A stretch of DNA of 64,000 nucleotides from a phage: assembly GCA_025829515.1 (NCBI GenBank), contig GCA_025829515.1_4865.1; one strand, 5' to 3'. The position numbers and the translations under genes are program-made. Shown here piece by piece: positions 2,377 through 50,176 of this stretch. A model generated the notes under the pieces. It was given only the letters and a program-made list of their open reading frames with translations, was not told where the DNA came from and did no database searches. Positions within the stretch are counted from its first letter, which is position 1; each line of letters begins with the position of its first letter.

Positions 2377-2400
2377 TTTCAGATATATATTACCTAGGTG
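2377..2400 (+). promoter_or_regulatory. conserved promoter-like motif, copy 1 (TTTCAGATATATATTACCTAGGTG)
   Basis: One of three near-identical copies (also 30881, 49652), each after a terminator and before a conserved leader ending in AAGGAG-ATG; contains TATATTAC. Confidence 0.55.
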
Positions 2401-2452
2401 ATAGAAGACAATCTATCAACTCAATCGACTATTAATCTAAAGGAGTATTGCC

Positions 2453-2596
2453 ATGTTAACTCGTAACCATAAACGTGCCATCTTTGCCATCGTTGCTGTT
2501 GTTGCTTTCGCGGTACTGTCTATCACTGTAACTCAAGATTACAATAAGTGTATCGATAACGGTAACTCTGTTGCCATGTGTACAGGTCGCGGCTAA
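2453..2596 (+). CDS. small membrane protein (47 aa, one TM helix)
   Basis: Not in ORF track (<60 aa). AAGGAG 8 nt before ATG; hydrophobic core AIFAIVAVVAFAVLSITV; stop overlaps next start (TAATG). Confidence 0.6.
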   Translation: MLTRNHKRAIFAIVAVVAFAVLSITVTQDYNKCIDNGNSVAMCTGRG

Positions 2597-2778
2597 TGGA
2601 CTTTTCTGATGCGCAGTTTGCCGAGTTCTTATCTCACCCGCGTGTTAAACGTGAGTGGGATAATCTCACTAACAGTGTTCGTCGTCAGGACGAAGAAGAA
2701 ATCGTTCACGTTACCGCACAAGTCTTACTCGTCTCACCGACAGGTAATGTGTTTCCAATGCAGCAGGAGATTTACTAA
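2596..2778 (+). CDS. hypothetical small protein (60 aa)
   Basis: ATG overlapping upstream stop (TAATG); same frame as track ORF 2578-2778, whose annotated start is GTG. Confidence 0.55.
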   Translation: MDFSDAQFAEFLSHPRVKREWDNLTNSVRRQDEEEIVHVTAQVLLVSPTGNVFPMQQEIY

Positions 2779-2966
2779 TGGGTGTTTTAGTTAATTACGA
2801 TGGTAAAAACGGAATCGTGCTTCGTGAAGTGGAAGATAACGAAGCAGTAGAGGTGAATCCGCAAACCTCAGAACGCACATTTATCGTGGGGCCGAAAAGC
2901 GCACTACCGAAGCCGGACTGGAAAGAAGAGCTGGCGAAGTTCCGTGGGGAACTCGGGAAGAAGTAG
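2778..2966 (+). CDS. hypothetical small protein (62 aa)
   Basis: ORF with TAATG start overlap; followed by terminator. Confidence 0.6.
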   Translation: MGVLVNYDGKNGIVLREVEDNEAVEVNPQTSERTFIVGPKSALPKPDWKEELAKFRGELGKK

Positions 2967-2978
2967 TATAGCTAATTT

Positions 2979-3007
2979 AATACCACCTACGGGTGGTATT
3001 ATTTTTT
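2979..3007 (+). terminator. rho-independent terminator
   Basis: Stem aataccacc/ggtggtatt, loop tacg, then T-run. Confidence 0.75.
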
Positions 3008-3025
3008 GCCTAAGGAACGTGAAAA

Positions 3026-3442
3026 ATGATTAATGAGAAGCTCCAAAAGTATTTAAAGAATGACACCGACTGGATGGTCCTTGACCAGTACGGACGATTT
3101 GTTCCGCTATCCAAGGATTCCCCTATACCCCGTGACAAGGCGATTTATATTCCTGACGGTAAGGGCGGTTATCGTTTCTGGGAAGGCCAGGAAGTAAAAG
3201 AGGAAATGTTCTACATGGAGCCGAAGTTCCGTGCGGCGTTCCCATCGAAAAATATCAACGGCTATGTTTACAACGCAATTCCGCCAATTACGCATCCTAA
3301 CTTTGAGGTTGTGAACTACCCCGCAACTGTTCTGGATTGGCAACGTGCCATTAGTGAACACTACACGATCCCGCTTGAAGGTGTTTACTTCCCATTCCGT
3401 GATATTAGTTTAGATGACTTTATTAACTCTCTTAAGGACTAA
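3026..3442 (+). CDS. hypothetical protein (138 aa)
   Basis: ORF with AAGGA upstream. Confidence 0.7.
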   Translation: MINEKLQKYLKNDTDWMVLDQYGRFVPLSKDSPIPRDKAIYIPDGKGGYRFWEGQEVKEEMFYMEPKFRAAFPSKNINGYVYNAIPPITHPNFEVVNYPATVLDWQRAISEHYTIPLEGVYFPFRDISLDDFINSLKD

Positions 3443-3444
3443 AA

Positions 3445-4305
3445 ATGTACAGCATTACTGATTTCATCAAAAGTTCAGATTTCCCCCTACCTCCCGACCA
3501 CGAAGTATTGGCTAGCGATCCGTTAACCGATGCGGCCATTGTCCAGCTGGACCGCGACAAACGTCGTACTTACGTCGTGTTGGTCGAAGGGCAGAGCTAC
3601 GGCCTGTCTTCTTACGACCTGGAGCAGCAGGAGCGTTTCCTCGATGAAAACCGCAAAACGTCAATGTATAGCGCTATCTCGCGTGCGCTGTGCAAGGTAA
3701 TGGCAACCGTTACAGACAGCAAAAAGCGTATCGCTGTGTTACAGGGTATCAATGCACTAACGACCAAAATCCAACAACTTGAAGGTTTCCATTGCCCGCG
3801 ATTGGAAGCCGCACAGAAGGATGCTAAGGGCGATGAGGCCATGGCACTGTTTGAAGGCAATACTGTCTTTGCAACAGCTGAAGCTTGTTATCTCACCTAT
3901 CCAACTTTTAACTATACGCCAATCAGCGACACCGTAGACGGGATTAAAGTAGAGAACGTCGTGCAATGGGGTCGTGCAAATCTCAAGTTTGTGATGTCCC
4001 ATGAAGAAGAAAATCAAGATGGCCTTGGGCAGAAGATTCAACGTTGGTTCACGGCGCGTTTGGACGCCGACTGGGAAGCGCATGTTAACGCAGAGCTTCG
4101 TAAATTTCACGCGGTAGTCGCATTGTTAAAAGAAGACGCTCCCGCCCCGAAACAATCGAAGGCACCAGTGGTTGGCTGGACGTGTTCCGGCTGTAACCGC
4201 AACCATGTCGCTACAGTACCGAGAACTCATCGCTACACTTCGCAGACGATGAACATTGCTTGCCCGGCTTGCGGTAAGATCAACGAAGTTGATTATAAAC
4301 CGTAG
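3445..4305 (+). CDS. hypothetical protein with C-terminal zinc-ribbon-like CxxC...CxxC (286 aa)
   Basis: C-terminus CSGCNRNH...CPACGKINEV; coupled to upstream gene. Confidence 0.7.
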   Translation: MYSITDFIKSSDFPLPPDHEVLASDPLTDAAIVQLDRDKRRTYVVLVEGQSYGLSSYDLEQQERFLDENRKTSMYSAISRALCKVMATVTDSKKRIAVLQGINALTTKIQQLEGFHCPRLEAAQKDAKGDEAMALFEGNTVFATAEACYLTYPTFNYTPISDTVDGIKVENVVQWGRANLKFVMSHEEENQDGLGQKIQRWFTARLDADWEAHVNAELRKFHAVVALLKEDAPAPKQSKAPVVGWTCSGCNRNHVATVPRTHRYTSQTMNIACPACGKINEVDYKP

Positions 4306-4312
4306 TAGTACC

Positions 4313-4351
4313 CCCTCTTACCTTCGGGTAAGAGGGTTTTATATTTATTTT
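4313..4351 (+). terminator. rho-independent terminator (UUCG tetraloop)
   Basis: ccctcttacc-ttcg-ggtaagaggg plus ttttatatttatttt; hairpin identical to the one at 30800-30823. A second hairpin gctctctcc-cgaa-ggagagagc follows at 4372-4393. Confidence 0.8.
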
Positions 4352-4419
4352 CCGAAAAGAAAATAAAAGGCGCTCTCTCCCGAAGGAGAGAGCTTATTCA
4401 CATCCACTTAGAGGTTAAC

Positions 4420-4566
4420 ATGAATACCTTTATACAACAACTGCGTCAGCAACAGCTGAAACAAGTCGCTTTTCAACAACGTCTGCAAGAGGTTAGCCGC
4501 CAACCGCAGACTTCCACCCGTACCATTAAAGGACTAGGAGGTGACATCATCTTCAATAAGAAGTAA
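4420..4566 (+). CDS. small Gln-rich protein, paralog 1 (48 aa)
   Basis: Not in track (<60 aa). GAGG 5 nt before ATG; same length and about 40% identity to 4679-4825 with shared C-terminal IKGLGG(D/E)I motif; own terminator. Confidence 0.55.
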   Translation: MNTFIQQLRQQQLKQVAFQQRLQEVSRQPQTSTRTIKGLGGDIIFNKK

Positions 4567-4575
4567 CACTAACCA

Positions 4576-4597
4576 GGGGTGCTCGAACACCCCTTTT
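4576..4597 (+). terminator. terminator hairpin
   Basis: ggggtg-ctcgaa-cacccc followed by tttt. Confidence 0.6.
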
Positions 4598-4678
4598 AAC
4601 TCCCGTGACAGTATATCAGTGCATTGTGTACCACCACAGCGCAGCGATATATTAACAACCTGCCTAAGGAGGCACTAC

Positions 4679-4825
4679 ATGGAACAACTACGTTCGCAAA
4701 TACTTAACCATTACGTTAAGCAAACCCAATTCAACCAACGTGTACAACAGTTGACTGCGCCCAAGCAGAACACTGTTCGTCGTATCAAGGGTTTAGGAGG
4801 TGAAATACTACTAAACAAAAGTTAA
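4679..4825 (+). CDS. small Gln-rich protein, paralog 2 (48 aa)
   Basis: AAGGAGG 6 nt before ATG; the track ORF 4541-4825 is a read-through extension across the terminator. Synonymous third-position differences relative to paralog 1 (att/atc, aaa/aag, gga/ggt). Confidence 0.6.
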   Translation: MEQLRSQILNHYVKQTQFNQRVQQLTAPKQNTVRRIKGLGGEILLNKS

Positions 4826-4838
4826 CATGAAATAACTC

Positions 4839-4866
4839 TTACCCGAGTGTTCCAGCACTCGGGTAA
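4839..4866 (+). terminator. hairpin, probable terminator
   Basis: 11 bp stem ttacccgagtg/cactcgggtaa; T-run lies about 27 nt downstream (4894-4901), so efficiency is uncertain. Confidence 0.45.
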
Positions 4867-4957
4867 TTCCATGCATATAAATAGTTCGTCGTATTTTTTT
4901 TGATCTTGGCAGGACGCATAAACTGCCCGTAGGGGAGCCTAAGCTCCCCAGTGTTCG

Positions 4958-6520: not shown

Positions 6521-6534
6521 GGAGCATCCTTAAA

Positions 6535-9369: not shown

Positions 9370-9400
9370 TAATCCGTAAGGATTACGTTGCCTAAGATTA

Positions 9401-9438
9401 GCTTACTCCCTTCGGGGAGTAAGCTTTTTCTTTTTTTC
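9401..9438 (+). terminator. rho-independent terminator (UUCG tetraloop)
   Basis: gcttactccc-ttcg-gggagtaagc plus tttttctttttttc. Confidence 0.85.
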
Positions 9439-9444
9439 TAAAAA

Positions 9445-9469
9445 TTTATAGATAGATATTATCTTAGGG
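9445..9469 (+). promoter_or_regulatory. promoter-like motif variant (TTTATAGATAGATATTATCTTAGGG)
   Basis: Shares the AGATA-N-ATATTA core with the three-copy motif; sits between terminator and AAGGAG-ATG of the next gene. Confidence 0.4.
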
Positions 9470-9504: not shown

Positions 9505-10203
9505 ATGGTAATCAATTTAGAAAAATCAAGATTAGTTGCGCCTATGTTCGACGGCAGAGGATTTATGGCAGCCGGCTTTTTTGCATCGGAATGCTCTGTT
9601 CCCTTCCGTGAAAATTCTGAAGAACCTACTAATTTTTATCTCAGTCACGATGCGGTAAGTGCGATATTGCAGTGGGTGAGGATGTGGGAACTTCATTTAC
9701 AAGGTGATGATAGTCTGCGGATGGATTATCCGCAGTTAAATATAAACGGTGTTGTGTTCACTCTATATTCCATCGCCGACTACGACTACAATGAGCTGAA
9801 AAATATACACCCTAGCCAGGCAACGCAAATATTCGACACCATACGTCAGAACTTCGCGACTGGGTTTACTGAACGGAAAGATTTGTGGGAAAAAGCCAAT
9901 CACCCATTTGGTAGTTATTCTGCGGAGTCGTTTAACGTTCTCGGCAGAAGGATGGAGTTTGACTACGATAACGCCGCAGTGCGTTATAATTACCAAATCG
10001 TGAATCAGCCGATCCCCGCCCCGTATGCGTCTCTCGAGTTAACGATGGTAAAGATAGCCGATGCACTCCTCTCAGTAGCAAACACGAACACGTATCCGCA
10101 AGCTGGATACGAGCTGGGTCTGAAGTTGGGCTTCGGCGACCAGAAGTTGGCCGATTTAACCCGCGACCAACTCCGCGAAATAGCCCAACGCCTAATACCC
10201 TAA
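9505..10203 (+). CDS. hypothetical protein (232 aa)
   Basis: ORF with AAGGAG 6 nt before ATG. Confidence 0.75.
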   Translation: MVINLEKSRLVAPMFDGRGFMAAGFFASECSVPFRENSEEPTNFYLSHDAVSAILQWVRMWELHLQGDDSLRMDYPQLNINGVVFTLYSIADYDYNELKNIHPSQATQIFDTIRQNFATGFTERKDLWEKANHPFGSYSAESFNVLGRRMEFDYDNAAVRYNYQIVNQPIPAPYASLELTMVKIADALLSVANTNTYPQAGYELGLKLGFGDQKLADLTRDQLREIAQRLIP

Positions 10204-10250
10204 AGTTTTTTACGTTACGGGCACTGGGTATGAACCCGTGCCCAAAGTAA

Positions 10251-10276
10251 TCTGAGATAGATATTATCTACGTGAA
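10251..10276 (+). promoter_or_regulatory. promoter-like motif variant (TCTGAGATAGATATTATCTACGTG)
   Basis: Same AGATAGATATTATCT core as 9451; preceded by hairpin 10219-10243. Confidence 0.4.
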
Positions 10277-10308
10277 TAATTCTTTTGGTATTATTACTGG
10301 GATGCTCA

Positions 10309-11313
10309 ATGAACCGTTATGATTTAGACGTTCAGCCAACGCTAACCCAGCGGCCCATGCACCGTGGTGCCGTGTCGAAGACTATCACGTACGAAAATAA
10401 TACCGGGTTTCCCATTTACGTCACTGAACTCAGTGGCGGGCATTTTGTTTTAGCCCCGTCGTCCACCACAGCGGCGGAATTTGGGATTGTTATTTACGTG
10501 ACCTATACGGTGTTTGCGAACGGTGCTAACCTATCTGGTTTGCGCGACGCACATTCGCCAAAGCAGTATGCGCAGATATGTAAGGAATTAACTACGAACG
10601 GCGAAACAACGCTGATGTATGTAGTTGATGATATCGGTGCATTAATGCGAGGCGACTTGGTGGTGTTGAAGAAGCTAGGAATGGCTTTCTCTACCCAACC
10701 AGTAAAACTCGATTCTGAGGTTATTGGTAAGCCTGGAGGGGATCGTAAAGAATTTGCCTTGGGCGTGGTAGTTGTGCAGAAGTACGAAGACCCAGCACCT
10801 TTAAAGTGGCTGAGGTTCTATACAACGATGTTGGAAGTCGAACCGATTCGATCGAAGTATTACGACGAGGGTATTTACATGGTAATCGGTGGTGCGGAGT
10901 GTGTCGAAGGGGGTAAGATGATAATGTACGCTTTCGATGACCCGATGTCCCCGTTCCGGGCGTTTGCATCTGAAGATGAAGCGAGGCGTTATCGGTGGCT
11001 CGATAACATTCCAGAGTTGCGAGATGTTCGTGCGAAGCTGGAAGCCACGTATCAGGCCAAGTTGCAAGATCTCGATGAGAAAAAGAATCGGCAAGACCTC
11101 GATTATCGTACGCAACTTAATAATCTGGCGCTGGAGAAGGAGAGGATTAACACCCTTAACGCAATCCAGACGAATGAGCTTAAGTTGCGTTCCGATGTTC
11201 GTAAAGACCAATACGAGTCCCGAGCTTATCAGCGAAAAGATAGCTCGGAGTTCTTGAAATCCATTCCCGCGTATTTGGCTGCAGGGGTAGCACTCGTTGG
11301 GATGATTCTCTGA
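10309..11313 (+). CDS. hypothetical protein with C-terminal coiled coil and TM anchor (334 aa)
   Basis: In-frame ATG at 10309 (track start 10285 is TTG); C-terminal heptad-like region ending in hydrophobic AYLAAGVALVGMIL. Confidence 0.65.
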   Translation: MNRYDLDVQPTLTQRPMHRGAVSKTITYENNTGFPIYVTELSGGHFVLAPSSTTAAEFGIVIYVTYTVFANGANLSGLRDAHSPKQYAQICKELTTNGETTLMYVVDDIGALMRGDLVVLKKLGMAFSTQPVKLDSEVIGKPGGDRKEFALGVVVVQKYEDPAPLKWLRFYTTMLEVEPIRSKYYDEGIYMVIGGAECVEGGKMIMYAFDDPMSPFRAFASEDEARRYRWLDNIPELRDVRAKLEATYQAKLQDLDEKKNRQDLDYRTQLNNLALEKERINTLNAIQTNELKLRSDVRKDQYESRAYQRKDSSEFLKSIPAYLAAGVALVGMIL

Positions 11314-11324: not shown

Positions 11325-13103
11325 GTGTTTAAAGATGCGATTAGGAAGATTAAAGAGGCAGGCGAAATAGTGCCTTTTAATCGTGCAATTGCAGAAGGAG
11401 TTGGGTACACACAAGCTAAAGATGGGATACATGATCGTGTGGCAACCATTCTACGTCGTGAGTTGACGTATGATGAAATCGATAACCCGAAATTACCAGA
11501 AGGGTTAACGGTGTTAGGCTGCCGTCAGATGTCCCCGTTTGAAGCTTTTATCTTTAAGTTATCGAAGTCGGATAACAATTCACGAAACAATCGTGGCCGG
11601 TCAATTATTAACATCTCATCCACTGACACGTATATGGTAATGGCCTCGTTCCGAGTTCCAGGCGATCCTCGCCCGGTGCAACGACCAATGAGCCTGCCGT
11701 TTATTCGTCGTGGCGGCTTAATGAACTACTACGGTACAACGTACCACGTAGCACCTGTAATCCACCAACCTGGTATTTGTCGTGAGCACGGTGGTATCTT
11801 TATTAACTTTGACTTCACACGCAAGGTGTCTATCAAGTTCTGTAAGAAACCAACGAAGATTCTGGTGAATGGTCGCCCTGAGCAGCTGTTCTTGCCAGGT
11901 ACATCGAATCTGTTTGTCTCAACTGGACAGATTGGACACGACACCGATGAGAAGCCACTGATGTATTGGCTCTTTGGGCGTTATGGCTTTAAACAAGCCG
12001 TGAAGCGTTATGCGGGCGTTGATGTGACGATTTGGCCAGCGATTAAAGTACGTGATGTGGACTTAACGAAGTATGTGGTGATTCAATCTGGTGAGCCACA
12101 ACTCGCGAAGACCATCCAGTACGTACTGTTGGTTAAACGTGAAGATATGCCTAACACCGATGCAGGGCGTTGGGATCAAAACGAACATCTGTTGCTGGTA
12201 GCGACTGCCGCATTCTTCAAAGCGGCGCACTATTACGCAGGTAAACAGAACAGTAAGAACGGTCGTGCACCAACACTGCCGGGGCTGTTTACACAGATTA
12301 ACGAAATGGCAATGGACGAAGATATTGCGAACCTCAATTCTGCAGCCTCCTGGCGCGAAGTGTTGGGTCGTAGTATTCGCGGACTGAAGCCTTCGGATAT
12401 CGAACTGAGTCGCAGTATGGACAGCCACTTCCAGGAATGTGAACGCTATGTCAACAGCACCTTCCGTGGTGAGCTGATGGCAAACGATCCGTCCATCCCT
12501 GATGATTTGGATATGTTTGATTTCCTCTGGTACACCACGCAGCTGATGGTGCGTACTCGTCTTACCAAACAAGATGATATTCCGTCTATGTACGGAAAAC
12601 GTCTCACGGTAACCGATTACTTACTGTTGGGCCAACGTGGCTTTACCACAACGATCTCGAAAATACGTTGGAAGCTGGGGCAGTTGGAACATCGGACTCC
12701 AGAGACAGCGGCGAAGTCTATTCGAGACGCACTGAACAAACAGATCGTGCTCAATCTGGTGATGCGCACCATTACGAGCAACGGCGGTATCAGTTTCTTC
12801 AATGCCTCTACAGAATCAATGGTATTGGCAGTGTCTACGCACGCCATCGGTCAAACCGAAACCGATGCTAAGCGTTCGAAGAAAGGAGGCAAGACCGTTA
12901 ACTTGAACGACCGTACTAAGCACGCATCTGCGTCGCATCTGGAATGTGGTAACGTCTACTATATTCCTAAGTCGGCACCGTTTAAGGCGAACATCCTCAA
13001 CCCGTACATGAAGACCAACCCAAGTTTGGTAATGATGCGGAATCCTAAACTGGACCCGTACATCAGACCGACCGAAGAAGACATTGCTAAAATCGGCCGC
13101 TAA
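11325..13103 (+). CDS. hypothetical protein (592 aa)
   Basis: GTG start with GGGAGG 5 nt upstream, immediately after upstream stop. Confidence 0.75.
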   Translation: MFKDAIRKIKEAGEIVPFNRAIAEGVGYTQAKDGIHDRVATILRRELTYDEIDNPKLPEGLTVLGCRQMSPFEAFIFKLSKSDNNSRNNRGRSIINISSTDTYMVMASFRVPGDPRPVQRPMSLPFIRRGGLMNYYGTTYHVAPVIHQPGICREHGGIFINFDFTRKVSIKFCKKPTKILVNGRPEQLFLPGTSNLFVSTGQIGHDTDEKPLMYWLFGRYGFKQAVKRYAGVDVTIWPAIKVRDVDLTKYVVIQSGEPQLAKTIQYVLLVKREDMPNTDAGRWDQNEHLLLVATAAFFKAAHYYAGKQNSKNGRAPTLPGLFTQINEMAMDEDIANLNSAASWREVLGRSIRGLKPSDIELSRSMDSHFQECERYVNSTFRGELMANDPSIPDDLDMFDFLWYTTQLMVRTRLTKQDDIPSMYGKRLTVTDYLLLGQRGFTTTISKIRWKLGQLEHRTPETAAKSIRDALNKQIVLNLVMRTITSNGGISFFNASTESMVLAVSTHAIGQTETDAKRSKKGGKTVNLNDRTKHASASHLECGNVYYIPKSAPFKANILNPYMKTNPSLVMMRNPKLDPYIRPTEEDIAKIGR

Positions 13104-15137: not shown

Positions 15138-15139
15138 TT

Positions 15140-15539: not shown

Positions 15540-18283
15540 TAGAGGACGTTGTCTGGGTTGTCGTCGGTAGTTCCTTCACCGCCTTCTGTGCCTTCCGTTC
15601 CCTCGGTAGTTGTTTCCGTGGTTTCGGTCGACTCAGTAGTTTCCTCTGTACTATCGCCACCGGTGCCGTTATCCGTATCGAGATCGAGGTCTAAATCATC
15701 GTCACCCCCACCGCCGAGATCCCCATCATCACCACCAGTGTCACCGCCCGCATCAAAACCACCACCGAATCCGCCGGAAGCATCATTAGGATCAAGGTCG
15801 GCATTCTTCGCTAACGTTTCCAGTCGTCCGGTGAAACGTTTCGCCAATTGAATCAGCGTTTTCGAAGCAGCCATCGCTTCATCAGTCATCATGGTGATGT
15901 TGTCCTGACGAGAATCATCGTCGTAAACCAGATCGAAGAAGTCGGTTTCAATACCTTGTTTACGCAGCCAGTTGCGCGTATAGAAGGACTTGATCATCGT
16001 CTTCAGATCGTTCGGGTCCATCGAGATGCCTTCTTGCTGGAGTTGCGCAGCAATGTCATCCGTTACAACCAGATCAGCCAGCTTCTCAAAGAACTCCGTA
16101 CGTTTATCGAACAGCTCCATCTGCGAAGCTGCTGCCGATGTGTCGGGTGGTGGTAAGGTTACTTTCATACCGTTGATAAACGCAGCCAGATACTCAGAGA
16201 CCTTTTTCGTAATCTGGTCAGTAGTCATCCCATTGCCGTTAGCATTGATGTACTCTGCAATGATTTTAATCATCGCTGATTGCAACGACGGAGAGGCCAA
16301 CATCCCATTAACTACGTAACGTGTCAGTGGCTTAGAGAGAATCTCTTGCTTCTTAACAACCTGCTGGGTGACCAGTAACGATTTAGAGAAGATCTGTGAA
16401 GCAAACTCGATGTTCTCGGGGGTCATTACCAGGTCAGGGTCAACACCTGCGATGTGACAAGTGCGACGTAACAGACCTTCGTCGAAATCCTTATCCGGGT
16501 ATTTATAATCCGGCGTAGTGTCCGACACAGACACTTTGGTACTACCGTAGTAGTCGTTACCAATAACGTTAAACGCAATACCTGCGTTTGTCGTCATTGC
16601 CCAGGTGTCGTTCATGTCCCCCCACATCGGTTGACGACGGTTATAGGAGTTCATGATGTCTGTTTTCAGCTGGTCAATTGTTTTCTGACCGTTCATGTCG
16701 TCTGGTGCCAACTCAATGTCGTACTGCATGTGACGTGCAGAGTTCAGCACCGCAGAGTTCATGGTAGCGAACAACAGCGCCATACGGACAGTAGAGATAA
16801 CGAACGAGCGTTCGGTAATAGATACACCGATACCATCTTCATCAAAGTCCGTGGCAAAATAGCAAAGGTTTTCCGCAGGAATATAAATAACCTGCGTATG
16901 ACGTTTTGCCAGATGGCGCGCCAGCATGATACGGCTGAACGTTTCGGTTACTGTCATGCTAATCTCAGCACCACCCAACGCCTCACCCAACGCTTTTGTC
17001 AGCTGGTCTTCAGCAATCTCACCATAACGCGCTGTTAAGCGGTTAGCAATGTCTGGTGTGATTCGGGTTGTGTTGCCCATCCCCAGATTCGCGCGGTTGA
17101 TTGTCGAATCTACCATACCGTCGTTGTTCAGGTAGTTCATGAAGTTCGCATCCCCGTAAAGTGTGGAACGCGAGTTAATGAAGTTACCCATTTCGTCAAC
17201 GATGGCCAGATAACCTATGGGGTTACGAACATCGTCTCCGATAACGAGTGGGAGTGTGGACTCTGCTGGCAGTAATCGTTCCGTGTATTCGATTTTGTTG
17301 GCATCGGAGAAACTCATCTTCGGTACTTCGCCGTAAAGCTTTTGCTCAGGCGTTTTCTGGTACGCTTCGTTGAGGTCGCCGATGTTGATTAAACCGAGTT
17401 TTGCCTTCTCTTGTTCGCTGTCTGTGAACTGGTCAGCGTTATACTCTGACGCACCTGTCGGCGTAGAAGGTTGTTCATATGCGTACTGCTCTAACTGACC
17501 GAACAGGCCGGTGCGAGCATTCTCCTGTGCCACACGGCGATAAGCCTCTGGTAGCAGGGTAATACGCGGGTTGTCGGTGATAACGATATCCAGGGAAGCT
17601 AACATACCGTCTGCTTTAAACGGACTGTTAGGGGCTGCTGCAAAGTTAAGTTTAATGGTTTGTGGCTTGGTGGGCTTGTCAGCGCCACGTGCACGACCCA
17701 GAATACTTTCTACGCCAACCTTCGGTTTGTTTTCACCGCCAATCTTGCCCAGGATACCCAACTGACGTTCAAAGAAGTCAGATTGGCTACGGCGCAACGA
17801 TTCGGTTGCAACAGACGGCTTTAAGCCGAAGAGTTCATCGAATCCGGTATCTGAAATCAGCAACACCGGGCTCGCGCCTTTGGATTTCAGTGCATCGTAA
17901 ATCCACTGATACAGTTTGTTGGGTAACTGGCGCGTGTGGTCATGGAATTCACGCACAGGTTCCAATAACTGCTGACGCAGGTCGATCGGGATATCAGCCA
18001 CGTTGTCGTAAATCAGCGTGGTGTTAATCAAATCTTTTGTGGACAGGAGCGAGGAGGTCGCGATGGTAACAATGACCTCTAACTCAGGGAGCGCATCAAA
18101 GATACGTTCGGCATTTTTAACGGTGCGAATGCGGCTACTCGCAATGCCCGTGAGTTCTGTACGGGTTGGTGTAACGCCGCCATCTTCACGCTTACCGCGT
18201 TGCTGCTGAGCCGACGGGCTCGTGGACTTACGCAGTATGGCAGCTACCGCGGGGTCGCCCGTTAATTTACTAATATCTTCCAT
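15539..18283 (-). CDS. large virion-type protein with acidic disordered C-terminal tail, candidate portal (914 aa)
   Basis: Long - strand ORF; GGAGA 6 nt before ATG; C-terminal about 80 aa low-complexity acidic (DLDLDLD, TEETTESTETTETTTEGTEG). Portal assignment is inference from size and composition only. Confidence 0.3.
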   Translation of the reverse strand: MEDISKLTGDPAVAAILRKSTSPSAQQQRGKREDGGVTPTRTELTGIASSRIRTVKNAERIFDALPELEVIVTIATSSLLSTKDLINTTLIYDNVADIPIDLRQQLLEPVREFHDHTRQLPNKLYQWIYDALKSKGASPVLLISDTGFDELFGLKPSVATESLRRSQSDFFERQLGILGKIGGENKPKVGVESILGRARGADKPTKPQTIKLNFAAAPNSPFKADGMLASLDIVITDNPRITLLPEAYRRVAQENARTGLFGQLEQYAYEQPSTPTGASEYNADQFTDSEQEKAKLGLINIGDLNEAYQKTPEQKLYGEVPKMSFSDANKIEYTERLLPAESTLPLVIGDDVRNPIGYLAIVDEMGNFINSRSTLYGDANFMNYLNNDGMVDSTINRANLGMGNTTRITPDIANRLTARYGEIAEDQLTKALGEALGGAEISMTVTETFSRIMLARHLAKRHTQVIYIPAENLCYFATDFDEDGIGVSITERSFVISTVRMALLFATMNSAVLNSARHMQYDIELAPDDMNGQKTIDQLKTDIMNSYNRRQPMWGDMNDTWAMTTNAGIAFNVIGNDYYGSTKVSVSDTTPDYKYPDKDFDEGLLRRTCHIAGVDPDLVMTPENIEFASQIFSKSLLVTQQVVKKQEILSKPLTRYVVNGMLASPSLQSAMIKIIAEYINANGNGMTTDQITKKVSEYLAAFINGMKVTLPPPDTSAAASQMELFDKRTEFFEKLADLVVTDDIAAQLQQEGISMDPNDLKTMIKSFYTRNWLRKQGIETDFFDLVYDDDSRQDNITMMTDEAMAASKTLIQLAKRFTGRLETLAKNADLDPNDASGGFGGGFDAGGDTGGDDGDLGGGGDDDLDLDLDTDNGTGGDSTEETTESTETTETTTEGTEGTEGGEGTTDDNPDNVL

Positions 18284-28524: not shown

Positions 28525-29133
28525 ATGGTAGCTGTCCGCAGCGTGCCACATCAGACTGGCTCGCGATATACTTTTTGTGTAAAGCGTTTTGGGGCAAGAA
28601 ATCGCCCTGGTTGGAAGGTGGTACGTGCGATGGGACAGTTCTGGCAATTACCGCCCGGCACGTTAAAATATTTTTCAGTAGACAGAATAACCCGGTTCTT
28701 AAATGCGGCTGACCCAAGTCAACGGTCCAGTTTTATAGCAGGGGTTGTTTGTCGTCCCGATGGGAAAACACGCGATGCAACCACACGTGGAATTTACTGG
28801 ACAGGACAGAACGCGTTTCAGGTTGGCTTACCTTGCCTGAAGTGTGAAGTGACGCCGTTTAATGGCCCCTATGCCGATGCGTACTTCACCGGTATCTTTG
28901 TGTCGTTCCCAGACGACCCGTCTTTAAACTACTTTCTATCGGTAGACAAAGACGTCAGTATTGATACCTTCTACAAATACTTGTTGTTTTACAGCCGGTA
29001 TATCCGCGTGACTCCTGTGCATGAAGATTGGTATTATAAAAATCCCTTGAACTATGGGAGGGACAGGAGACTAGAAGGATGTTCTATCGAGAGCTTCAAC
29101 TCTGTACCGCAGCGCTCCATGGCGCTAATGTGA
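28525..29133 (+). CDS. hypothetical protein (202 aa)
   Basis: ORF immediately after the GNAT gene; 3' end overlaps the next ORF by about 55 nt. Confidence 0.6.
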   Translation: MVAVRSVPHQTGSRYTFCVKRFGARNRPGWKVVRAMGQFWQLPPGTLKYFSVDRITRFLNAADPSQRSSFIAGVVCRPDGKTRDATTRGIYWTGQNAFQVGLPCLKCEVTPFNGPYADAYFTGIFVSFPDDPSLNYFLSVDKDVSIDTFYKYLLFYSRYIRVTPVHEDWYYKNPLNYGRDRRLEGCSIESFNSVPQRSMALM

Positions 29134-30065: not shown

Positions 30066-30109
30066 CCCACTCCTTCGGGAGTGGGTCGACTCTATTCTTT
30101 TTTTTCTTT
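30066..30109 (+). terminator. rho-independent terminator (UUCG tetraloop)
   Basis: cccactcc-ttcg-ggagtggg plus a T-run. Confidence 0.8.
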
Positions 30110-30798: not shown

Positions 30799-30836
30799 CC
30801 CCTCTTACCTTCGGGTAAGAGGGCATTGTCTTTTTT
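30799..30836 (+). terminator. rho-independent terminator (UUCG tetraloop)
   Basis: ccctcttacc-ttcg-ggtaagaggg, identical 24-nt hairpin to 4313-4336, then a T-run. Confidence 0.8.
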
Positions 30837-30880
30837 ACAGATCAGAACAGTCCTATGCTTTTTGCTTCCAGTCCACTAAA

Positions 30881-30908
30881 TTTCAGATATATATTACCTT
30901 AGTGAGAG
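30881..30908 (+). promoter_or_regulatory. conserved promoter-like motif, copy 2
   Basis: TTTCAGATATATATTACCTTAGTGAGAG; same downstream leader (aatcgactattaatctaaaggagtatt) as copy 1. Confidence 0.55.
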
Positions 30909-30955
30909 TTGTCGTTAAACTCTCTAATCGACTATTAATCTAAAGGAGTATTCTA

Positions 30956-31321
30956 ATGCGTTTTAAACATCAAACCGTTGTGTTGGCAAAGAAAGCATTT
31001 CTGGTTCGTCTCTCTTACATTATTACTCGTGTCACTGCGAAGGATGTTACGCAGAAAGACATTGCATTGTTGGTAGGCTGCTCACCGTCACAAATCTCTG
31101 CGATTAAAAATGAACGCGAGAAAGCCGTGACTATCGAAACTCTGATGCGTGTTGCCGATACACTGCGCCTGAATTACGAAATCGTTTACCGTTCCATCAA
31201 CGGCAAATGCCGCCATAGCTTCAAAATTGAATCCTGCATCGACTACATGAACAACTGTCCTATCCGGGTACGAGAAACAGGACTTAAAGTCATGGCACGT
31301 AAACCTTCTGCAGTGATGTAA
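30956..31321 (+). CDS. XRE-type helix-turn-helix DNA-binding protein (121 aa)
   Basis: QKDIALLVGCSPSQISAIKNE matches the HTH_XRE pattern; first gene after promoter cassette copy 2. Confidence 0.55.
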   Translation: MRFKHQTVVLAKKAFLVRLSYIITRVTAKDVTQKDIALLVGCSPSQISAIKNEREKAVTIETLMRVADTLRLNYEIVYRSINGKCRHSFKIESCIDYMNNCPIRVRETGLKVMARKPSAVM

Positions 31322-37180: not shown

Positions 37181-37472
37181 GCCCACACTGACGCACCAGG
37201 AACTGCACGTCCGTTTTATTCGGGCGTTCACACCCCCGTTAGGTGGTGAGGTACACGATCGTTCCGTGGTTGCAGAAGTTAAAGGTATCGGCGAAGAACT
37301 AATGACACTGTCTAATATTGTGACGGGTGTTGAGTTCACGTTACCGTTAAACGTATTTCGGTTTATTCCGCGCGTAAACGAAACGCTGCTCATCGACCGT
37401 GTACATCATCGGATTATGGCGCAGGTACATCCTAGCCGTAAAGAGTATGTGCGCTTAGAGATGATGGTCTAA
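37140..37472 (+). CDS. hypothetical protein (110 aa)
   Basis: Internal ATG of track ORF 36921-37472, chosen to minimise overlap with 36863-37180; start uncertain (alternative ATG at 37158). Confidence 0.45.
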   Translation: MPQDSFMSNLNPIEPTLTHQELHVRFIRAFTPPLGGEVHDRSVVAEVKGIGEELMTLSNIVTGVEFTLPLNVFRFIPRVNETLLIDRVHHRIMAQVHPSRKEYVRLEMMV

Positions 37473-37480
37473 CGCACGAC

Positions 37481-37510
37481 TTTTCAGATAGATGTTATTT
37501 TACTGAACCT
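37481..37510 (+). promoter_or_regulatory. promoter-like motif variant (TTTTCAGATAGATGTTATTTTACTGAACC)
   Basis: Shares TTTCAGATAGATGTTAT-N-TGAACC with the copy at 45886; lies just upstream of the 37535 gene. Confidence 0.4.
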
Positions 37511-45845: not shown

Positions 45846-45888
45846 TACCAGCTATCCTTCGGGGTGGCTGGTACGCTTTATTTTATTT
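45846..45888 (+). terminator. rho-independent terminator
   Basis: taccagc / gctggta stem enclosing a cc-ttcg-gg mini-hairpin, then tttattttattt. Confidence 0.7.
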
Positions 45889-45913
45889 CAGATAGATGTT
45901 ATCTCAGTGAACC
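45886..45913 (+). promoter_or_regulatory. promoter-like motif variant (TTTCAGATAGATGTTATCTCAGTGAACC)
   Basis: Matches 37481 variant; overlaps the terminator T-run; upstream of 45968 gene. Confidence 0.4.
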
Positions 45914-45967
45914 TCTGAAATTTACGTTTCAATCAGAGCTTATGTCATGTATTAAGGAGCACTTAAA

Positions 45968-46300: not shown

Positions 46301-46628
46301 AGTAATCGGTGTTGCCAGACCAATGCGTCTCAATAGGACACCGATGATAAAACGTGATATCGGTGAAGCTGTAAAACAGTTGTCGAATATCGACGGTTAC
46401 ACCTTTAAAGTGATAACACTGTACGACTACCCAGAAGGTAAAGTTCCGCAAGAGGCGCTGGATATATTCGTTAATGTATTAGACGATTGCCTTAAGAGTC
46501 CAACGGACGTAAATCTTATCAAACTAAACACCATGTCCCTTGAACTGTACCGGCTGCGTAAAATGGGCATTCATGCTCGCATCGGTAAAGGTGACCAAAC
46601 GTTAGCCGAATACTGGGCTAAACAGTAA
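46293..46628 (+). CDS. hypothetical protein (111 aa)
   Basis: ATG overlapping upstream stop by 8 nt (track start 46275 is GTG). Confidence 0.6.
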   Translation: MGRVIGVARPMRLNRTPMIKRDIGEAVKQLSNIDGYTFKVITLYDYPEGKVPQEALDIFVNVLDDCLKSPTDVNLIKLNTMSLELYRLRKMGIHARIGKGDQTLAEYWAKQ

Positions 46629-46655
46629 GCTATTTTAAATCCTAAGGAGCATTAA

Positions 46656-47174
46656 GTGAATATTATCATGAACCTGTATACCAAACGGGAACGTAACGTT
46701 TTAGAATCGGGCGTTGCCCCGGAAGTATTGGCTGCGGGGGATATTAGTATCGACCCATTGAAAGTGAAAGTCGCGGAACTGTTCCCTCGTGATGAATGGG
46801 ACATCTGGTATTTCCGTTGTTCGTCGGTATTAAATGCAATCAAGCAACTGTCTGATTATCAGCCTGGTCCGTATATCGGTACTTGGCACTGGTACGTTCC
46901 ACGCACACCAAACTTCCTTTACCTGCACGACGATGATAAACGTACTCATATTCGCACTGTAGCGACGCCTGCGCGTTTGGAGCGTTATCTGGAGCTAATC
47001 CACGACCGGCCTCGTAACGAGCTGCAGAGCATCGTAGAGGTGCTCAGACAGGTACCTTTAGACGGTATACTGGAACTGGACATGAAAATCGCCGATCGTC
47101 CGAGACATTACTGGGAATTTTCCTGGGTAGACGCGAAGTACGAAAACCATAACGTTATCTATCTGAAACGTTAA
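46656..47174 (+). CDS. hypothetical protein (172 aa)
   Basis: GTG start with AAGGAG 6 nt upstream (alternative ATG at 46668). Confidence 0.65.
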   Translation: MNIIMNLYTKRERNVLESGVAPEVLAAGDISIDPLKVKVAELFPRDEWDIWYFRCSSVLNAIKQLSDYQPGPYIGTWHWYVPRTPNFLYLHDDDKRTHIRTVATPARLERYLELIHDRPRNELQSIVEVLRQVPLDGILELDMKIADRPRHYWEFSWVDAKYENHNVIYLKR

Positions 47175-47184
47175 GGGGGACAGG

Positions 47185-47505
47185 ATGTTGAACTGGTTAC
47201 TTGCGCTGATTAACAAGCGACAAAAACAACTGTACGAAGAAAACCGAGAATTAGCTGCCGCTAACCGTCGTGTACAGGCCGATAACTTGCAGTTAAGACA
47301 CGACCTCGCGAAACTGGACGTTAATGCGAGTAGGCTCTGCACGCACATAAGTCGCTGTCACGACATTATCGAACGTATTGGGCACTACCATCTTACGTCC
47401 CCTGCGCGTCGTGCCTATGACGCGGCCGTTCAGGGATTAAAAGATACCAGGAGTGCGTACGACGAGATGTTAGAAGAATTTAGTAAACGTGAGGATAAAA
47501 ACTAA
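47185..47505 (+). CDS. coiled-coil protein (106 aa)
   Basis: N-terminal heptad-like region; TAATG coupling to the next gene. Confidence 0.6.
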   Translation: MLNWLLALINKRQKQLYEENRELAAANRRVQADNLQLRHDLAKLDVNASRLCTHISRCHDIIERIGHYHLTSPARRAYDAAVQGLKDTRSAYDEMLEEFSKREDKN

Positions 47506-47888
47506 TGGAAATGCCAATGAACACCGACTTAGCACTGGCAATCGAACACATGAAAAACCATCAGCTGACGTTACTGAATGCAAGCACAGACGGACAACGT
47601 CAAGGGTATGCACTCGTTGCAAAAGCAGCGTTAGAACTTAACAAAATCCTGCTCGCTAAACTCTACAGCCTGGAGAACAGCGTGCTTCACGCAACGCATC
47701 TGGGTGAGGCCAGCGAGCTGGTTACAGACGTGCGCCTATATGCATCGCGCGAAATGGAGCGCTTAGTCAACGAGTGGAACCTTCAGTGTAACAGTGAGCG
47801 TGCTGATAACGATCCACGTAAAGTTGCACTGACGCCAGGCGTGTATATCAAGGACGGTAGCATCAACGAATATACCGGATTTAACTGA
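47505..47888 (+). CDS. hypothetical protein (127 aa)
   Basis: Coupled ORF. Confidence 0.6.
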   Translation: MEMPMNTDLALAIEHMKNHQLTLLNASTDGQRQGYALVAKAALELNKILLAKLYSLENSVLHATHLGEASELVTDVRLYASREMERLVNEWNLQCNSERADNDPRKVALTPGVYIKDGSINEYTGFN

Positions 47889-47911
47889 TCGGTAGATAAG
47901 GGTGATTGTGA

Positions 47912-48337
47912 ATGGTAACCATAGACGTAGCTATCTCTATCGAGCTTCAACGCATCGGTGTAGGTACACTAAAACTTCGTTATCGCGATTTACCGCATTA
48001 CAACAAGATGTTTGATGTTGGGGTGATAAAGTTTTATAACCGGTACGGGCCAAGAGAACTATGTCTATGGTTTGTTGAGTTAGCGATAACCTACGGCGAG
48101 TTCTATCATCCTAACATACCACATGTCAGACATGTGTCAAGAGGGCACCTGGAAACTTCCAGAGAGTTCTGTCAGCGATTGTATAGCGCGATGGAGGAGT
48201 CCGCACCCATCGACTATGACGTGCCACCTGAACTGTTATTAATCGACCACGAAGGAGAAGCTGGTGTCTATTTCATTACGGGGACTGACTATTCACGAGA
48301 TTCAGAAATATTTACTCGAGGGCGGGAAACTGACTGA
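47912..48337 (+). CDS. hypothetical protein (141 aa)
   Basis: ORF; 3' end overlapped by the next ORF. Confidence 0.6.
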   Translation: MVTIDVAISIELQRIGVGTLKLRYRDLPHYNKMFDVGVIKFYNRYGPRELCLWFVELAITYGEFYHPNIPHVRHVSRGHLETSREFCQRLYSAMEESAPIDYDVPPELLLIDHEGEAGVYFITGTDYSRDSEIFTRGRETD

Positions 48338-48569
48338 CGACTATCAAACCGCAGATATGTTGCTACAGTCATTTGTACCGTTACGTGCTGAGTATTACGA
48401 AATCGCGTTCCTGGGCGATGAATATTGTGTCCGTACACAAGGTCGCGAGTACGAAGCAGTTCGCGTACCACGAACACTCGGCGGGGTGATGATACTTATC
48501 GCTAATATCGAAGCACTCAATGCGAAATGTGCGTTATACATCGCACATGGAGGTCGCAATGGATTTTAA
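48264..48569 (+). CDS. hypothetical protein (101 aa)
   Basis: GTG start with GGAG at 48254-48257; overlaps upstream gene by 74 nt in another frame. Confidence 0.45.
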   Translation: MSISLRGLTIHEIQKYLLEGGKLTDDYQTADMLLQSFVPLRAEYYEIAFLGDEYCVRTQGREYEAVRVPRTLGGVMILIANIEALNAKCALYIAHGGRNGF

Positions 48570-48634
48570 GTGGGAACCGTTAACGTTAGCAGAAATTCGT
48601 AACAGAATCGATAGAGCTATTGCAAGGAGAAAAC

Positions 48635-49036
48635 ATGTTCGGCCTGTTTCAGGAGAAAAAACAGTTGCGTCGCCAATTAGAAATACTGGAATTGGAACTC
48701 AGCCTATCAAAGACTGAGTTGGAAATTTCGAAAGAAGCGTGGAAAAGAAATCTTGATGAATCTTTCGAAGAACGCCGTAAGCTTACACGACTACTTTCTG
48801 AGGAACAGTCTAAGAACCGGAAACTCGAAGATGAGCTACGGGATGCCCGACGAGATGCGGATCTGCGTGACAAGATGTTAGGACGGAACCTGGGTGCCCT
48901 AATCTATTTCATAGAGCAACGTTGGGAACCAAAAACACTCCTTGAGTTGCTCTATGAAAAACTCTCCTGTGTAGGTAAACGTTCTGCGGCCATCGAGTAT
49001 TTCCGTAGTCACGGTTTCGAGGTAAAAGATGAGTAA
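48635..49036 (+). CDS. coiled-coil protein (133 aa)
   Basis: ATG at 48635 with AAGGAG 5 nt upstream (track start 48620 is TTG); charged heptad repeats. A competing 52 aa ORF (48559-48717, GGAGG SD) overlaps its start. Confidence 0.6.
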   Translation: MFGLFQEKKQLRRQLEILELELSLSKTELEISKEAWKRNLDESFEERRKLTRLLSEEQSKNRKLEDELRDARRDADLRDKMLGRNLGALIYFIEQRWEPKTLLELLYEKLSCVGKRSAAIEYFRSHGFEVKDE

Positions 49037-49113
49037 ATTAGAGGTTGGCAGGCTGTTCGTTAATCCTTAAAAGCAACAGTTTCAAATTAGTTACGACCAT
49101 AAGGAGTATTAAA

Positions 49114-49554
49114 ATGTTAAAGCCACGCAAACAGAAAAGATTACAGTTTGTCAAAATAGTACATCCGGAGTCCCGTCGTGTTACAGGTGGACGTCTCTAC
49201 GTGGGTAAACACCGTAGTCGTCTTATCAGCTGGTCGGCAATGGCCAACGTAGCCACCCAACTCCAGGCAATGGTTGAAGACCGTTGTCAGTTAAAAGGTG
49301 ATTTCTTTCAAGAGAAGAAACCCTATCGTGATATCTTCCGTACACTAAAAGCGTGCTGGGTACTCAGCTGGGTGCCTGGCCGCGAACAACTTTATTTTCT
49401 GCGTAAGTTCCCACGCCCTATGCCGAAGGAAAACATTAGCGTTTTCTTAGACAAACTAAAACGCTTTAATGACATCGGCATTAACGCTAATAAAGAGCAA
49501 GTTTCTGCTACAGTAGCAGCCCGGAAACTCTTACGCGATTACGTGGCCGATTGA
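49114..49554 (+). CDS. hypothetical basic protein (146 aa)
   Basis: ATG at 49114 with AAGGAG upstream (track start 49045 extended). Confidence 0.65.
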   Translation: MLKPRKQKRLQFVKIVHPESRRVTGGRLYVGKHRSRLISWSAMANVATQLQAMVEDRCQLKGDFFQEKKPYRDIFRTLKACWVLSWVPGREQLYFLRKFPRPMPKENISVFLDKLKRFNDIGINANKEQVSATVAARKLLRDYVAD

Positions 49555-49595
49555 CTTGAGAGGCACTTATCCCAAAAGAGGTCAATAAAGCAGCA

Positions 49596-49631
49596 CCCTA
49601 CTCCTTCGGGAGTAGGGTTTCTTCTTTTTTT
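49596..49631 (+). terminator. rho-independent terminator (UUCG tetraloop)
   Basis: ccctactcc-ttcg-ggagtaggg plus tttcttcttttttt. Confidence 0.85.
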
Positions 49632-49651
49632 GTCTAGTCCGATTACAATTA

Positions 49652-49680
49652 TTTTCAGATATATATTACTTAGGTGAGAG
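49652..49680 (+). promoter_or_regulatory. conserved promoter-like motif, copy 3
   Basis: TTTTCAGATATATATTACTTAGGTGAGAG; leader ctaatcgaccattatcttaaggag related to copies 1 and 2. Confidence 0.55.
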
Positions 49681-49729
49681 TTAACCATTAACTCTTATCT
49701 AATCGACCATTATCTTAAGGAGTTTTAAC

Positions 49730-50176
49730 ATGTACATTCTGAATAACGAACTTACTAAGTACGCTAGCAAAAACCCGATTATGATTTCTTTCCTAATCGT
49801 GATGGCGGCCAACAAACAAGACCCTAGCGAATTCACTACTGAGGACTTCGAAGAGATTATCGCTAACGCCAAAGAAGCCACGTTCCAGACCACAGAGCCT
49901 ACTCGCGACGAGTTCCCCCTAGGTGAAGCCGGCGATGTAATGTTTAACGACATGGTTGCTTCGTACTACATCAATAGACGTGGTATGGAAATCGAATACG
50001 ATGAACTTCCTACTAGCAGCTTTGCTGAAATGATTCGTGATTATCGTCGTCAAGTTGTCTCTGACGATATCGTAAAGAAATACATGGCACAAATCAGCCC
50101 ATTCAGTCTTGAATTCGAAAACCGCGCGGTTGCCTTAGCAACACATCGCCTGCGTTTAGAAAAAGAAGTACACTAA
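49730..50176 (+). CDS. hypothetical protein (148 aa)
   Basis: First gene after promoter cassette copy 3; AAGGAG upstream. Confidence 0.7.
   Translation: MYILNNELTKYASKNPIMISFLIVMAANKQDPSEFTTEDFEEIIANAKEATFQTTEPTRDEFPLGEAGDVMFNDMVASYYINRRGMEIEYDELPTSSFAEMIRDYRRQVVSDDIVKKYMAQISPFSLEFENRAVALATHRLRLEKEVH

Follow-up and report, generated by a model that had tools for sequence, protein, structure and literature searches.

The present study concerns a 64,000-nt stretch of phage DNA (NCBI GenBank assembly GCA_025829515.1, contig GCA_025829515.1_4865.1), hereafter referred to as the window, and a recurring AT-rich element that occupies seven places between its genes as a candidate early promoter, at some of them together with a conserved leader. 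The gene pair gp76-gp77 lies downstream of one of these sites, and the genes 3' of the remaining sites encode small uncharacterized proteins and one XRE-type helix-turn-helix (HTH) protein, which is a typical early-gene content. Regarding the source of the DNA, pieces of 3 kb and 25 kb of the window matched ~35 genomes of Salmonella, Escherichia, and Proteus jumbo phages of the genus Seoulvirus, with ~99% identity to SPLA1a/SPLA3, ~98% to SPN3US/SEGD1, and 75-80% to Erwinia jumbo phages, and position 1 of the window corresponds to ~63,032 of SPN3US. Judged by these matches, the source is an SPN3US-like (phiKZ-related) jumbo phage. SPN3US is an established relative of phiKZ that packages, as its virion RNA polymerase (vRNAP), a split multisubunit enzyme (gp42, gp218, gp240, gp241, and gp244), the subunits of which were detected in virions, and that additionally encodes a non-virion RNA polymerase (nvRNAP) including gp35 and gp77 (PMC5105663). 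Many "RNA polymerase beta subunit" fragments are annotated in its RefSeq record, and SPN3US possesses two sets of split beta/beta' RNA polymerase (RNAP) subunits, one of which is virion-packaged. The suggestion of a first-pass annotation of the window, made by a model from the letters, that the element would place this phage in phiKZ-like biology is borne out by these genes and by the nvRNAP beta-like gene gp77 within the window itself.

An exact 19-mer, TTTCAGATATATATTACYT, was found at positions 2377, 30881, and 49653, and with three mismatches also at 37482 and 45886, a total of 5 matches against 0.03 expected from shuffles. The three exact copies had been reported in the first-pass annotation (the last at 49652) as cassettes that each follow a terminator and precede a common leader and AAGGAG-ATG by about 50 nt, and this description is accurate: a + strand terminator-like hairpin precedes each copy (Table 1), and the downstream sequence reads AATCGACYATTA-N5-6-AAGGAG-N7-ATG, with the start codons being located 52-54 nt past the predicted +1. 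An oriented weight matrix, which ran from 22 nt before to 24 nt after the point where the AGATA core starts, identified exactly seven sites in the window, with cores starting at 2381, 9450, 10255, 30885, 37486, 45890, and 49657; all were on the + strand and scored 33-49 bits, while the next-best score in the window was 9. A leave-out matrix trained on 16 SPN3US sites, all outside the region of the window, returned the same seven sites at 21-46 bits, against a shuffle maximum with a mean of 9.5 and a peak of 21.8, and, thus, only 37486 is marginal. The sites 9450, 10255, 37486, and 45890 are the variants that had been noticed at 9445, 10251, 37481, and 45886; they exist, but the label "degenerate" was mistaken because AGATAGATATTATC is the genome-wide majority consensus and the TATATTAC form represents a minority class. 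A weaker candidate proposed at 4645 scored -4.4 bits in the oriented matrix and is not a member; the sequence there, GATATATTAAC (4643-4681), lies ~25 nt 5' of a strong Shine-Dalgarno (SD) sequence, AAGGAGG, with the ATG at 4679, and could be a chance resemblance or another promoter class.

The consensus from the oriented matrix consists of an A-tract, TTTC, AGATA(G/T)ATATTA(T/C)CT, N2, and GTGA. Upstream of the core, an invariant A at core -10, the A-tract, and a TTTC abutting AGATA were found in the window and equally in 54 instances from IMG/VR, and the AT-rich box (TATATTAC or KATATTAY) is present at all seven window sites and at ~24 SPN3US sites. Iteration of an unoriented matrix collapsed to a palindromic model that reported each site on both strands, because the class II core described below is partly palindromic (AGATA-T-TATCT), and it was replaced by the oriented and leave-out matrices; since the flanks are asymmetric, with the A-tract and TTTC upstream and GTGA downstream, the element is directional. 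All seven sites are intergenic, at 30-59 nt 5' of a start codon, and lie between predicted ORFs (open reading frames) of the window as well as between annotated genes of SPN3US/SEGD1. A rough ORF map, greedy and restricted to ATG starts, placed six of the seven in noncoding DNA and flagged 49657, apparently due to a short spurious ORF. A + strand terminator-like hairpin is located 17-140 nt upstream of five sites (2381, 9450, 30885, 45890, and 49657).

The genome-wide motif search that had been proposed as a check detected the motif at ~24 loci in the full SPN3US genome, 22 of which are wholly intergenic in a genome that is 93.6% coding and 6.4% intergenic. All SPN3US sites point to a downstream + strand gene, most of them ~26-60 nt from the start codon as counted from the predicted +1, and a loosened core gave matches exclusively on the + strand (19/19 in SPN3US and 7/7 in the window). 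Two classes of core were distinguished. The majority class (class II) has the core AGATAGATATTATC and includes window sites 9450, 10255, 37486, and 45890; the minority class (class I), with the core AGATATATATTACYTAGGTGAG, which is the TATATTAC form, comprises six SPN3US sites, three of which are in the window (2381, 30885, and 49657). The motif stands directly 5' of all three nvRNAP operons of SPN3US, at 15614/15707 before gp22-gp23, at 28969 before gp34-gp35, and at 72684 before gp76-gp77, and no motif site was found upstream of the vRNAP genes gp42, gp218, and gp240/241 of SPN3US. The unoriented matrix also weakly matched TATAATAATACCTTTAGGTATTATTATA (128-167), a palindromic, AT-rich stretch close to the left end of the SPN3US record, which is not a promoter-type site.

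The site upstream of gp76 was followed across more distant relatives using the gp76 homologue with 400 nt of flank on either side from eleven further phages, which were retrieved by tblastn against a phage collection and gave 12 phages in total from Seoulvirus, Erskinevirus, Wellingtonvirus, Machinavirus, and Derbicusvirus and the Vibrio phage pVa-21, with protein identities from 83% down to 25%. At all 12 loci, the best match, on either strand, of the matrix built outside the window falls in the gap 5' of the gp76 homologue, at a distance of 48-54 nt to its start codon (pVa-21: 34 nt), in surroundings in which the DNA has diverged. In 2.9 million IMG/VR contigs, the strict motif matched almost only contigs of 220-250 kb, and the looser pattern TTT-N-A-N4-TATATTAC-N4-GTG also matched 201phi2-1 and other contigs of 260-325 kb.

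Table 1. Candidate promoters and associated features of the window; each +1 position and 5'-end hairpin is a prediction.
Feature	Position	Strand	Details
Terminator-like hairpin with T-tract	2217-2241	+	5' of promoter 1
Promoter 1, class I	2359-2400	+	A-tract; TTTC 2377-2380; core AGATATATATTACC 2381-2394; GTG 2398-2400; predicted +1 2400
Predicted 5'-end hairpin, promoter 1	2400-2417	+	GATAGA-agacaa-TCTATC
Leader block, promoter 1	2423-2434	+	AATCGACTATTA; SD AGGAG 2441-2445; ATG 2453; 47-aa ORF phrog_8574
Terminator-like hairpin	9400-9425	+	After major capsid gene; 25 nt 5' of promoter 2
Promoter 2, class II	9428-9469	+	Core AGATAGATATTATC 9450-9463; predicted +1 ~9469; ATG 9505; 232-aa ORF phrog_15414
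Promoter 3, class II	10233-10274	+	Core 10255-10268; GTG 10272-10274; ATG 10309; heads gp76-gp77 operon
gp76	10309-11313	+	Precedes gp77, same operon
ORF, SPN3US gp77, nvRNAP beta-like subunit	11325-13103	+	Matches PHIKZ123 (PDB 7OGP chain E), E=3e-20
Terminator-like hairpin	30800-30823	+	5' of promoter 4
Promoter 4, class I	30863-30904	+	TTTC 30881; core 30885-30898; GTG 30902-30904
Predicted 5'-end hairpin, promoter 4	30904-30924	+	GAGAGTT-gtcgtta-AACTCTC
Leader block, promoter 4	30926-30937	+	AATCGACTATTA; SD 30944-30948; ATG 30956; 121-aa XRE-type HTH protein (30956-31321)
Promoter 5, class II, weakest	37464-37505	+	Core AGATAGATGTTATT 37486-37499; CTG replaces GTG; ATG 37535
Terminator-like hairpin	45846-45873	+	After 1005-aa tail protein gene
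Promoter 6, class II	45868-45909	+	Core AGATAGATGTTATC 45890-45903; GTG 45907-45909; ATG 45968
Leader hairpin, promoter 6	45913-45938	+	CTCTGA...TCAGAG; starts at predicted +5
Intrinsic-terminator-like hairpin with T-tract	49595-49618	+	5' of promoter 7
Promoter 7, class I	49635-49676	+	TTTC 49653; core 49657-49670; GTG 49674-49676
Predicted 5'-end hairpin, promoter 7	49676-49696	+	GAGAGTTAA-cca-TTAACTCTT
Leader block, promoter 7	49701-49712	+	AATCGACCATTA; SD 49718-49722; ATG 49730; 148-aa ORF phrog_8484

Downstream of the promoter motif, the three class I cassettes of the window are near-identical over ~70 nt, including AATCGACYATTA, AAGGAG, and ATG, and in each a hairpin starts at the predicted +1. 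At 30885 and 49657, no pairing is predicted for the remainder of the leader, the SD, or the AUG, and at 2381 part of the leader is engaged in a weak second helix in the minimum free energy (MFE) structure. At 11 of 24 SPN3US sites, a hairpin of -5 kcal/mol or lower starts within a few nt of the predicted +1, with the mean at this position being -4.0 kcal/mol against -1.4 +/- 0.4 for shuffles. Among the 54 non-identical IMG/VR instances, 56-63% fold at -4 kcal/mol or better; the corresponding fraction is 13% for shuffles and 2-13% when the tested segment is shifted by +10 to +40 nt. Since the geometry of the hairpin varies and a MAFFT alignment of the paralogues was out of register, a swap test was used rather than column-wise pair counting; when the 5' and 3' halves of hairpins with 24 distinct 5' arms were exchanged between sites, the mean changed from -7.0 kcal/mol to -2.7 +/- 0.4 in the deranged chimeras, and, because swapping weakens folding, the stems covary. 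In the orthologous pair of window 30885 and SPN3US 94239, the stem GAGAGTT/AACTCTC is kept and five of seven loop bases are changed.

The second part of the class I leader is a block with the core CGACYAT. In SPN3US, 11 of its 70 copies lie 12-45 nt 5' of a start codon on the same strand against 1.3 expected (p=7.5e-8); class I operons contain eight of these. Some of the 11 belong to internal genes as far as ~1 kb from the promoter, and one comes after an intrinsic terminator. The block directly adjoins the SD in Erwinia phages (GACTATCAAGGAG), and among the IMG/VR instances 41% of class I leaders, and no class II leaders, contain a looser form, GAYYATY. At SPN3US 57149, 112247, 166647, and 224200, CGACYAT precedes the SD of internal genes, in early-type operons, that have no promoter motif close by, and because of such copies it appears to act as an independent element of the translation-initiation region. 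The bias toward the sense strand, the fixed spacing to the SD, and the copies at internal genes together suggest a role at the RNA level in the initiation or control of translation.

Regarding the identity of the promoter motif, published consensuses provide a direct comparison. The first-pass annotation had named TATATTAC as the core of phiKZ early promoters, and it is listed as such in the literature (PMC7058600). The early consensuses are ...TTTRARR-B-TATATTAC-DWHD-GTG for 201phi2-1, TBYAWWWWWTTTCARRYAKATATTATYWAAGTGWA for N1M2, and AWWWWW-TTTYARRYAKATATTATYWWADTG for OBP (PMC7058600 Table 2), and the window consensus aligns almost base for base with these in the form TTTYARR-N-KATATTAY-N4-GTG. 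An AT-rich motif ~10 bp 5' of early transcription start sites (TSSs), recognized by the vRNAP, has been described in a review for every RNAP-encoding jumbo phage (PMC7598289), and its position was confirmed by differential RNA-seq in phiKZ (PMC8244752) and by ONT-cappable-seq in 201phi2-1 (PMC11512511). Since the strong conservation at -2 reported for 201phi2-1 (PMC11512511) fits the G of GTG, we place +1 by analogy at about the last G of GTG. We consider it very probable that the seven sites are phage-specific early-class promoters, which are most likely read by the virion-packaged multisubunit RNAP. They share with phiKZ-like early promoters the AT-rich box, the TTTYAR and GTG flanks, the spacing, and the A/T tract upstream, as well as their intergenic and co-directional placement, their number of tens per genome, their location before small unknown genes and nvRNAP subunit genes, and the presence of a split vRNAP and nvRNAP in the genome. 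They differ in that two sub-consensuses, the phiKZ-like TATATTAC and the OBP-like GATATTATC, coexist in one genome, in that the TATATTAC class has a covarying stem-loop at the predicted +1 and a CGACYAT block before the SD, and in that the TSSs here are predicted only.

According to this model, a vRNAP injected with the DNA would recognize a directional element of ~40 bp, with the A-tract at ~-30, TTTC at ~-20, (T/G)ATATTA(C/T) at ~-14 to -7, and a GTG ending at ~+1. Transcripts would begin ~30-59 nt 5' of the gene that opens a + strand unit, in most cases just past the terminator of the preceding unit. Class II promoters, with mostly short plain leaders, would head the nvRNAP operons among others and set up a cascade from vRNAP to nvRNAP, while class I promoters would form a cassette of fixed length, the transcript of which would consist of a 6-9 bp stem-loop at +1, the AATCGACYATTA leader, a strong AAGGAG, and AUG. 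The sites would thereby offer a concrete and testable map of early transcription units (seven here and ~24 genome-wide) for SPN3US, the main genetic model of enterobacterial phiKZ-like phages, including the promoters that launch the nvRNAP. They would also point to a vRNAP promoter architecture that is conserved across Pseudomonas, Salmonella, Erwinia, Cronobacter, and Vibrio jumbo phages, and could be used as parts for orthogonal, host-independent expression.

This kind of site is already known, and the sites of the window add a member specific to this clade to an established promoter class. Only the +1 hairpin and the CGACYAT block may be new parts, and no description of either the +1 stem-loop or a CGACYAT block preceding the SD was found in the literature read. 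Among the papers searched, none was found that describes the motif in SPN3US-like phages; a logo for SPN3US may, however, already have been published.

Several points weigh against the assignment to early, vRNAP-dependent transcription. The sequence TATATTAC by itself has 4 matches in the window against 1.8 expected, which 16 of 100 shuffles equaled and which is not significant; the fourth of these copies, at 60753, lies within a coding region and was discarded as a chance match. Two of the 24 SPN3US matrix matches overlap coding sequence, and the partly palindromic core of class II would also suit a dimeric DNA-binding protein. For the position of the TSS, for the polymerase, and for the "early" timing, the assignment draws on phiKZ, 201phi2-1, and AR9, and our literature search on SPN3US-like phages found no 5'-end mapping, time-course, or rifampicin data. 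The window leaders taken singly have unremarkable MFE values (z = -0.1 to -1.1), the +1 hairpin is found at only about half of the SPN3US sites and is missing from sites with short leaders, and the 201phi2-1-type promoters examined have neither the +1 hairpin nor the CGACYAT block. Because half of the SPN3US sites and the 201phi2-1-type promoters do without it, the +1 hairpin is not required for promoter function; it is a clade-specific accessory and not part of promoter recognition.

A further reading, additional to the promoter role, is that recombination also acts on the terminator-promoter-leader cassettes and thereby reshuffles small early genes, in the manner of the promoter early stem-loop (PeSL) elements of T4-type phages, which are composite cassettes of a stem-loop terminator and an early promoter (Arbiol 2010, PMC2839356; Comeau 2014, PMC4122927). 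The T4-type arrangement of stem-loop terminator, early promoter, SD, and ATG, repeated between small unknown ORFs (PMC4122927), resembles what was found here: five of the seven window sites have a terminator-like hairpin upstream, the cassettes lie between small variable ORFs, the cassette paralogues are near-identical over ~70 nt, and close relatives differ by at least one complete promoter-gene-terminator module. This 918-bp module is present in SPN3US and SEGD1 (SPN3US 92531-93448, comprising a motif site at 92540, gp167, and a terminator), while the window is without it at 30094/30095, and the difference is a moron-like indel. Its junction lies in T-tracts after two terminators, outside the promoter repeats. 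The second of the two indels compared affects the 232-aa ORF (9505-10203) between sites 9450 and 10255, which is intact in the window and SEGD1, and in SPN3US has lost ~620 bp (window 9570-10192), leaving 198 bp between the two promoters; because this deletion is internal to the ORF, an origin bounded by cassettes was ruled out. PeSL promoters also differ in being sigma-70 promoters for the host RNAP, whereas the motif here is of the phiKZ early type assigned to the virion RNAP and is followed by an extra hairpin downstream of the predicted +1. What the two have in common is architecture, and we regard a role in recombination as unlikely.

The possibility that the sites are instead nvRNAP (middle-class) promoters, or that the two classes differ in the phage polymerase that reads them or in their timing, draws on the presence of two distinct cores with differing leader architectures and downstream gene sets, on the finding that 201phi2-1 drives some nvRNAP subunit genes from middle or late promoters (PMC11512511), and on the fact that early timing in SPN3US is predicted by analogy. 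We consider this to be quite improbable because the nvRNAP genes are themselves located downstream of such sites: class II sites stand before all three nvRNAP operons, which have to be expressed before the nvRNAP exists. Moreover, class I has the exact early box of phiKZ and 201phi2-1, TATATTAC, the flanks and spacing shared by both classes (TTTC...GTGA) suggest a single recognizer, and neither the middle motif of phiKZ (TACT at -22, following an A-repeat) nor its late motif (TATG at the TSS) looks like these sites (PMC7598289, PMC8244752).

The palindromic tendency of the class II core would also fit an operator for a phage regulator that replaces or overlaps the promoter, for example, the XRE-type HTH protein (HTH_3/XRE; 30956-31321) encoded directly 3' of site 30885, and most sites scored near-equally on both strands in the unoriented matrix. 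However, with its flanks, the motif is directional and co-oriented (7/7 in the window and 19/19 SPN3US regex matches) and lies at a constrained distance from start codons, the class I core is not palindromic, and the motif is homologous to mapped promoters in relatives and conserved as far as pVa-21; we hold an operator to be very improbable. That the sites are host sigma-70 promoters is scarcely credible, even though TATATT agrees with TATAAT in five of six positions and one + strand sigma-70-like call (10252-10280) overlaps site 10255, in view of matches that are not enriched in the scanned regions (10 vs 13.8, 7 vs 9.7, and 8 vs 6.8 expected), + strand calls that coincide with none of the other six sites and only isolated antisense overlaps, a TTTC that precedes the box by 5 nt and not by 16-18 nt, a hexamer-pair scan in which, apart from the call at 10255, the sites did not present TTGACA/TATAAT-like pairs 16-18 nt apart on the + strand, most conserved positions (AGATA...TTA.CT..GTGA) that are not sigma-70 determinants, a strict motif that is near-exclusive to jumbo-phage contigs, and the independence of phiKZ development from the host RNAP (PMC7598289).

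Returning to the candidate promoters of the window, the predicted 5'-terminal hairpin on class I transcripts would, by analogy, shield these early mRNAs from 5'-end-dependent decay as a protective stem-loop. A 5' hairpin of the ompA type, studied by Emory, Bouvet and Belasco in 1992, reportedly blocks 5'-end-dependent decay by RNase E/RppH and stabilizes bacterial mRNA. The hairpin here is likewise located 0-4 nt from the predicted 5' end, with the leader and SD predicted to be unpaired at 30885 and 49657; it differs in that the 5' end is only predicted and in that the hairpin is found at about half of the sites. In coliphage N4, an injected single-subunit vRNAP recognizes a DNA hairpin of conserved sequence upstream of +1. 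The candidate promoters of the window share with it a short hairpin at the promoter and, by homology, an injected virion polymerase for early promoters, and differ in that the conserved element is a linear duplex and the hairpin, with a free stem sequence, is downstream of the predicted +1. An N4-type hairpin promoter was rejected, as the hairpins lie at or after the predicted +1 and have 24 distinct stems.

A more speculative reading, which we consider to be rather unlikely, is that the class I cassette as a whole is a dedicated 5' module of early mRNAs in the SPN3US/Erwinia clade, made up of the stem-loop at +1 and the CGACYAT block at a fixed distance before the SD, with further copies of the block at internal genes of these operons. 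After transcription, it could be recognized as a signal by which virion-RNAP transcripts are stabilized, handled or exported, or controlled in their translation. Early transcription in Chimalliviridae takes place in a compartment apart from translation, and such a module, if real, would matter for this reason. The +1 hairpin and CGACYAT are cheap experimental handles on how giant phages treat their first transcripts. Two SPN3US loci, 165687-165780 and 167506-167620, consist of the motif, a +1 hairpin, and a canonical intrinsic terminator, followed by a CGACTAT block and a gene. They may give rise to short RNAs derived from an untranslated 5' leader (5'UTR) or act as attenuators, by analogy with the prematurely terminated 5'UTR small RNAs of 201phi2-1, and if the module were real, 165687 and 167506 would belong to this system as attenuators or short regulatory RNAs.

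Regarding the operon downstream of promoter 3, PHIKZ123, to which gp77 is matched, is a beta-like subunit of the solved phiKZ nvRNAP structure (7OGP). A Pfam search gave no match to either gp76 or gp77, and gp76 had no PDB relative by sequence, with only gp77 giving a PDB match. Despite this, gp76 is syntenic with the RNAP subunit gene in 12 phages. An Rfam scan of window positions 1-64000 returned no family at the gathering score. The leader at 10274-10308 and its orthologues in several genera have a conserved TGGT...CTGG and no canonical AGGAG, which may represent a conserved structure or an unusual ribosome-binding site. Two distant intergenic places, 4313-4336 and 30800-30823, have the same terminator-like hairpin of 24 nt, CCCTCTTACCTTCGGGTAAGAGGG, which suggests that terminators are also repeated modules.

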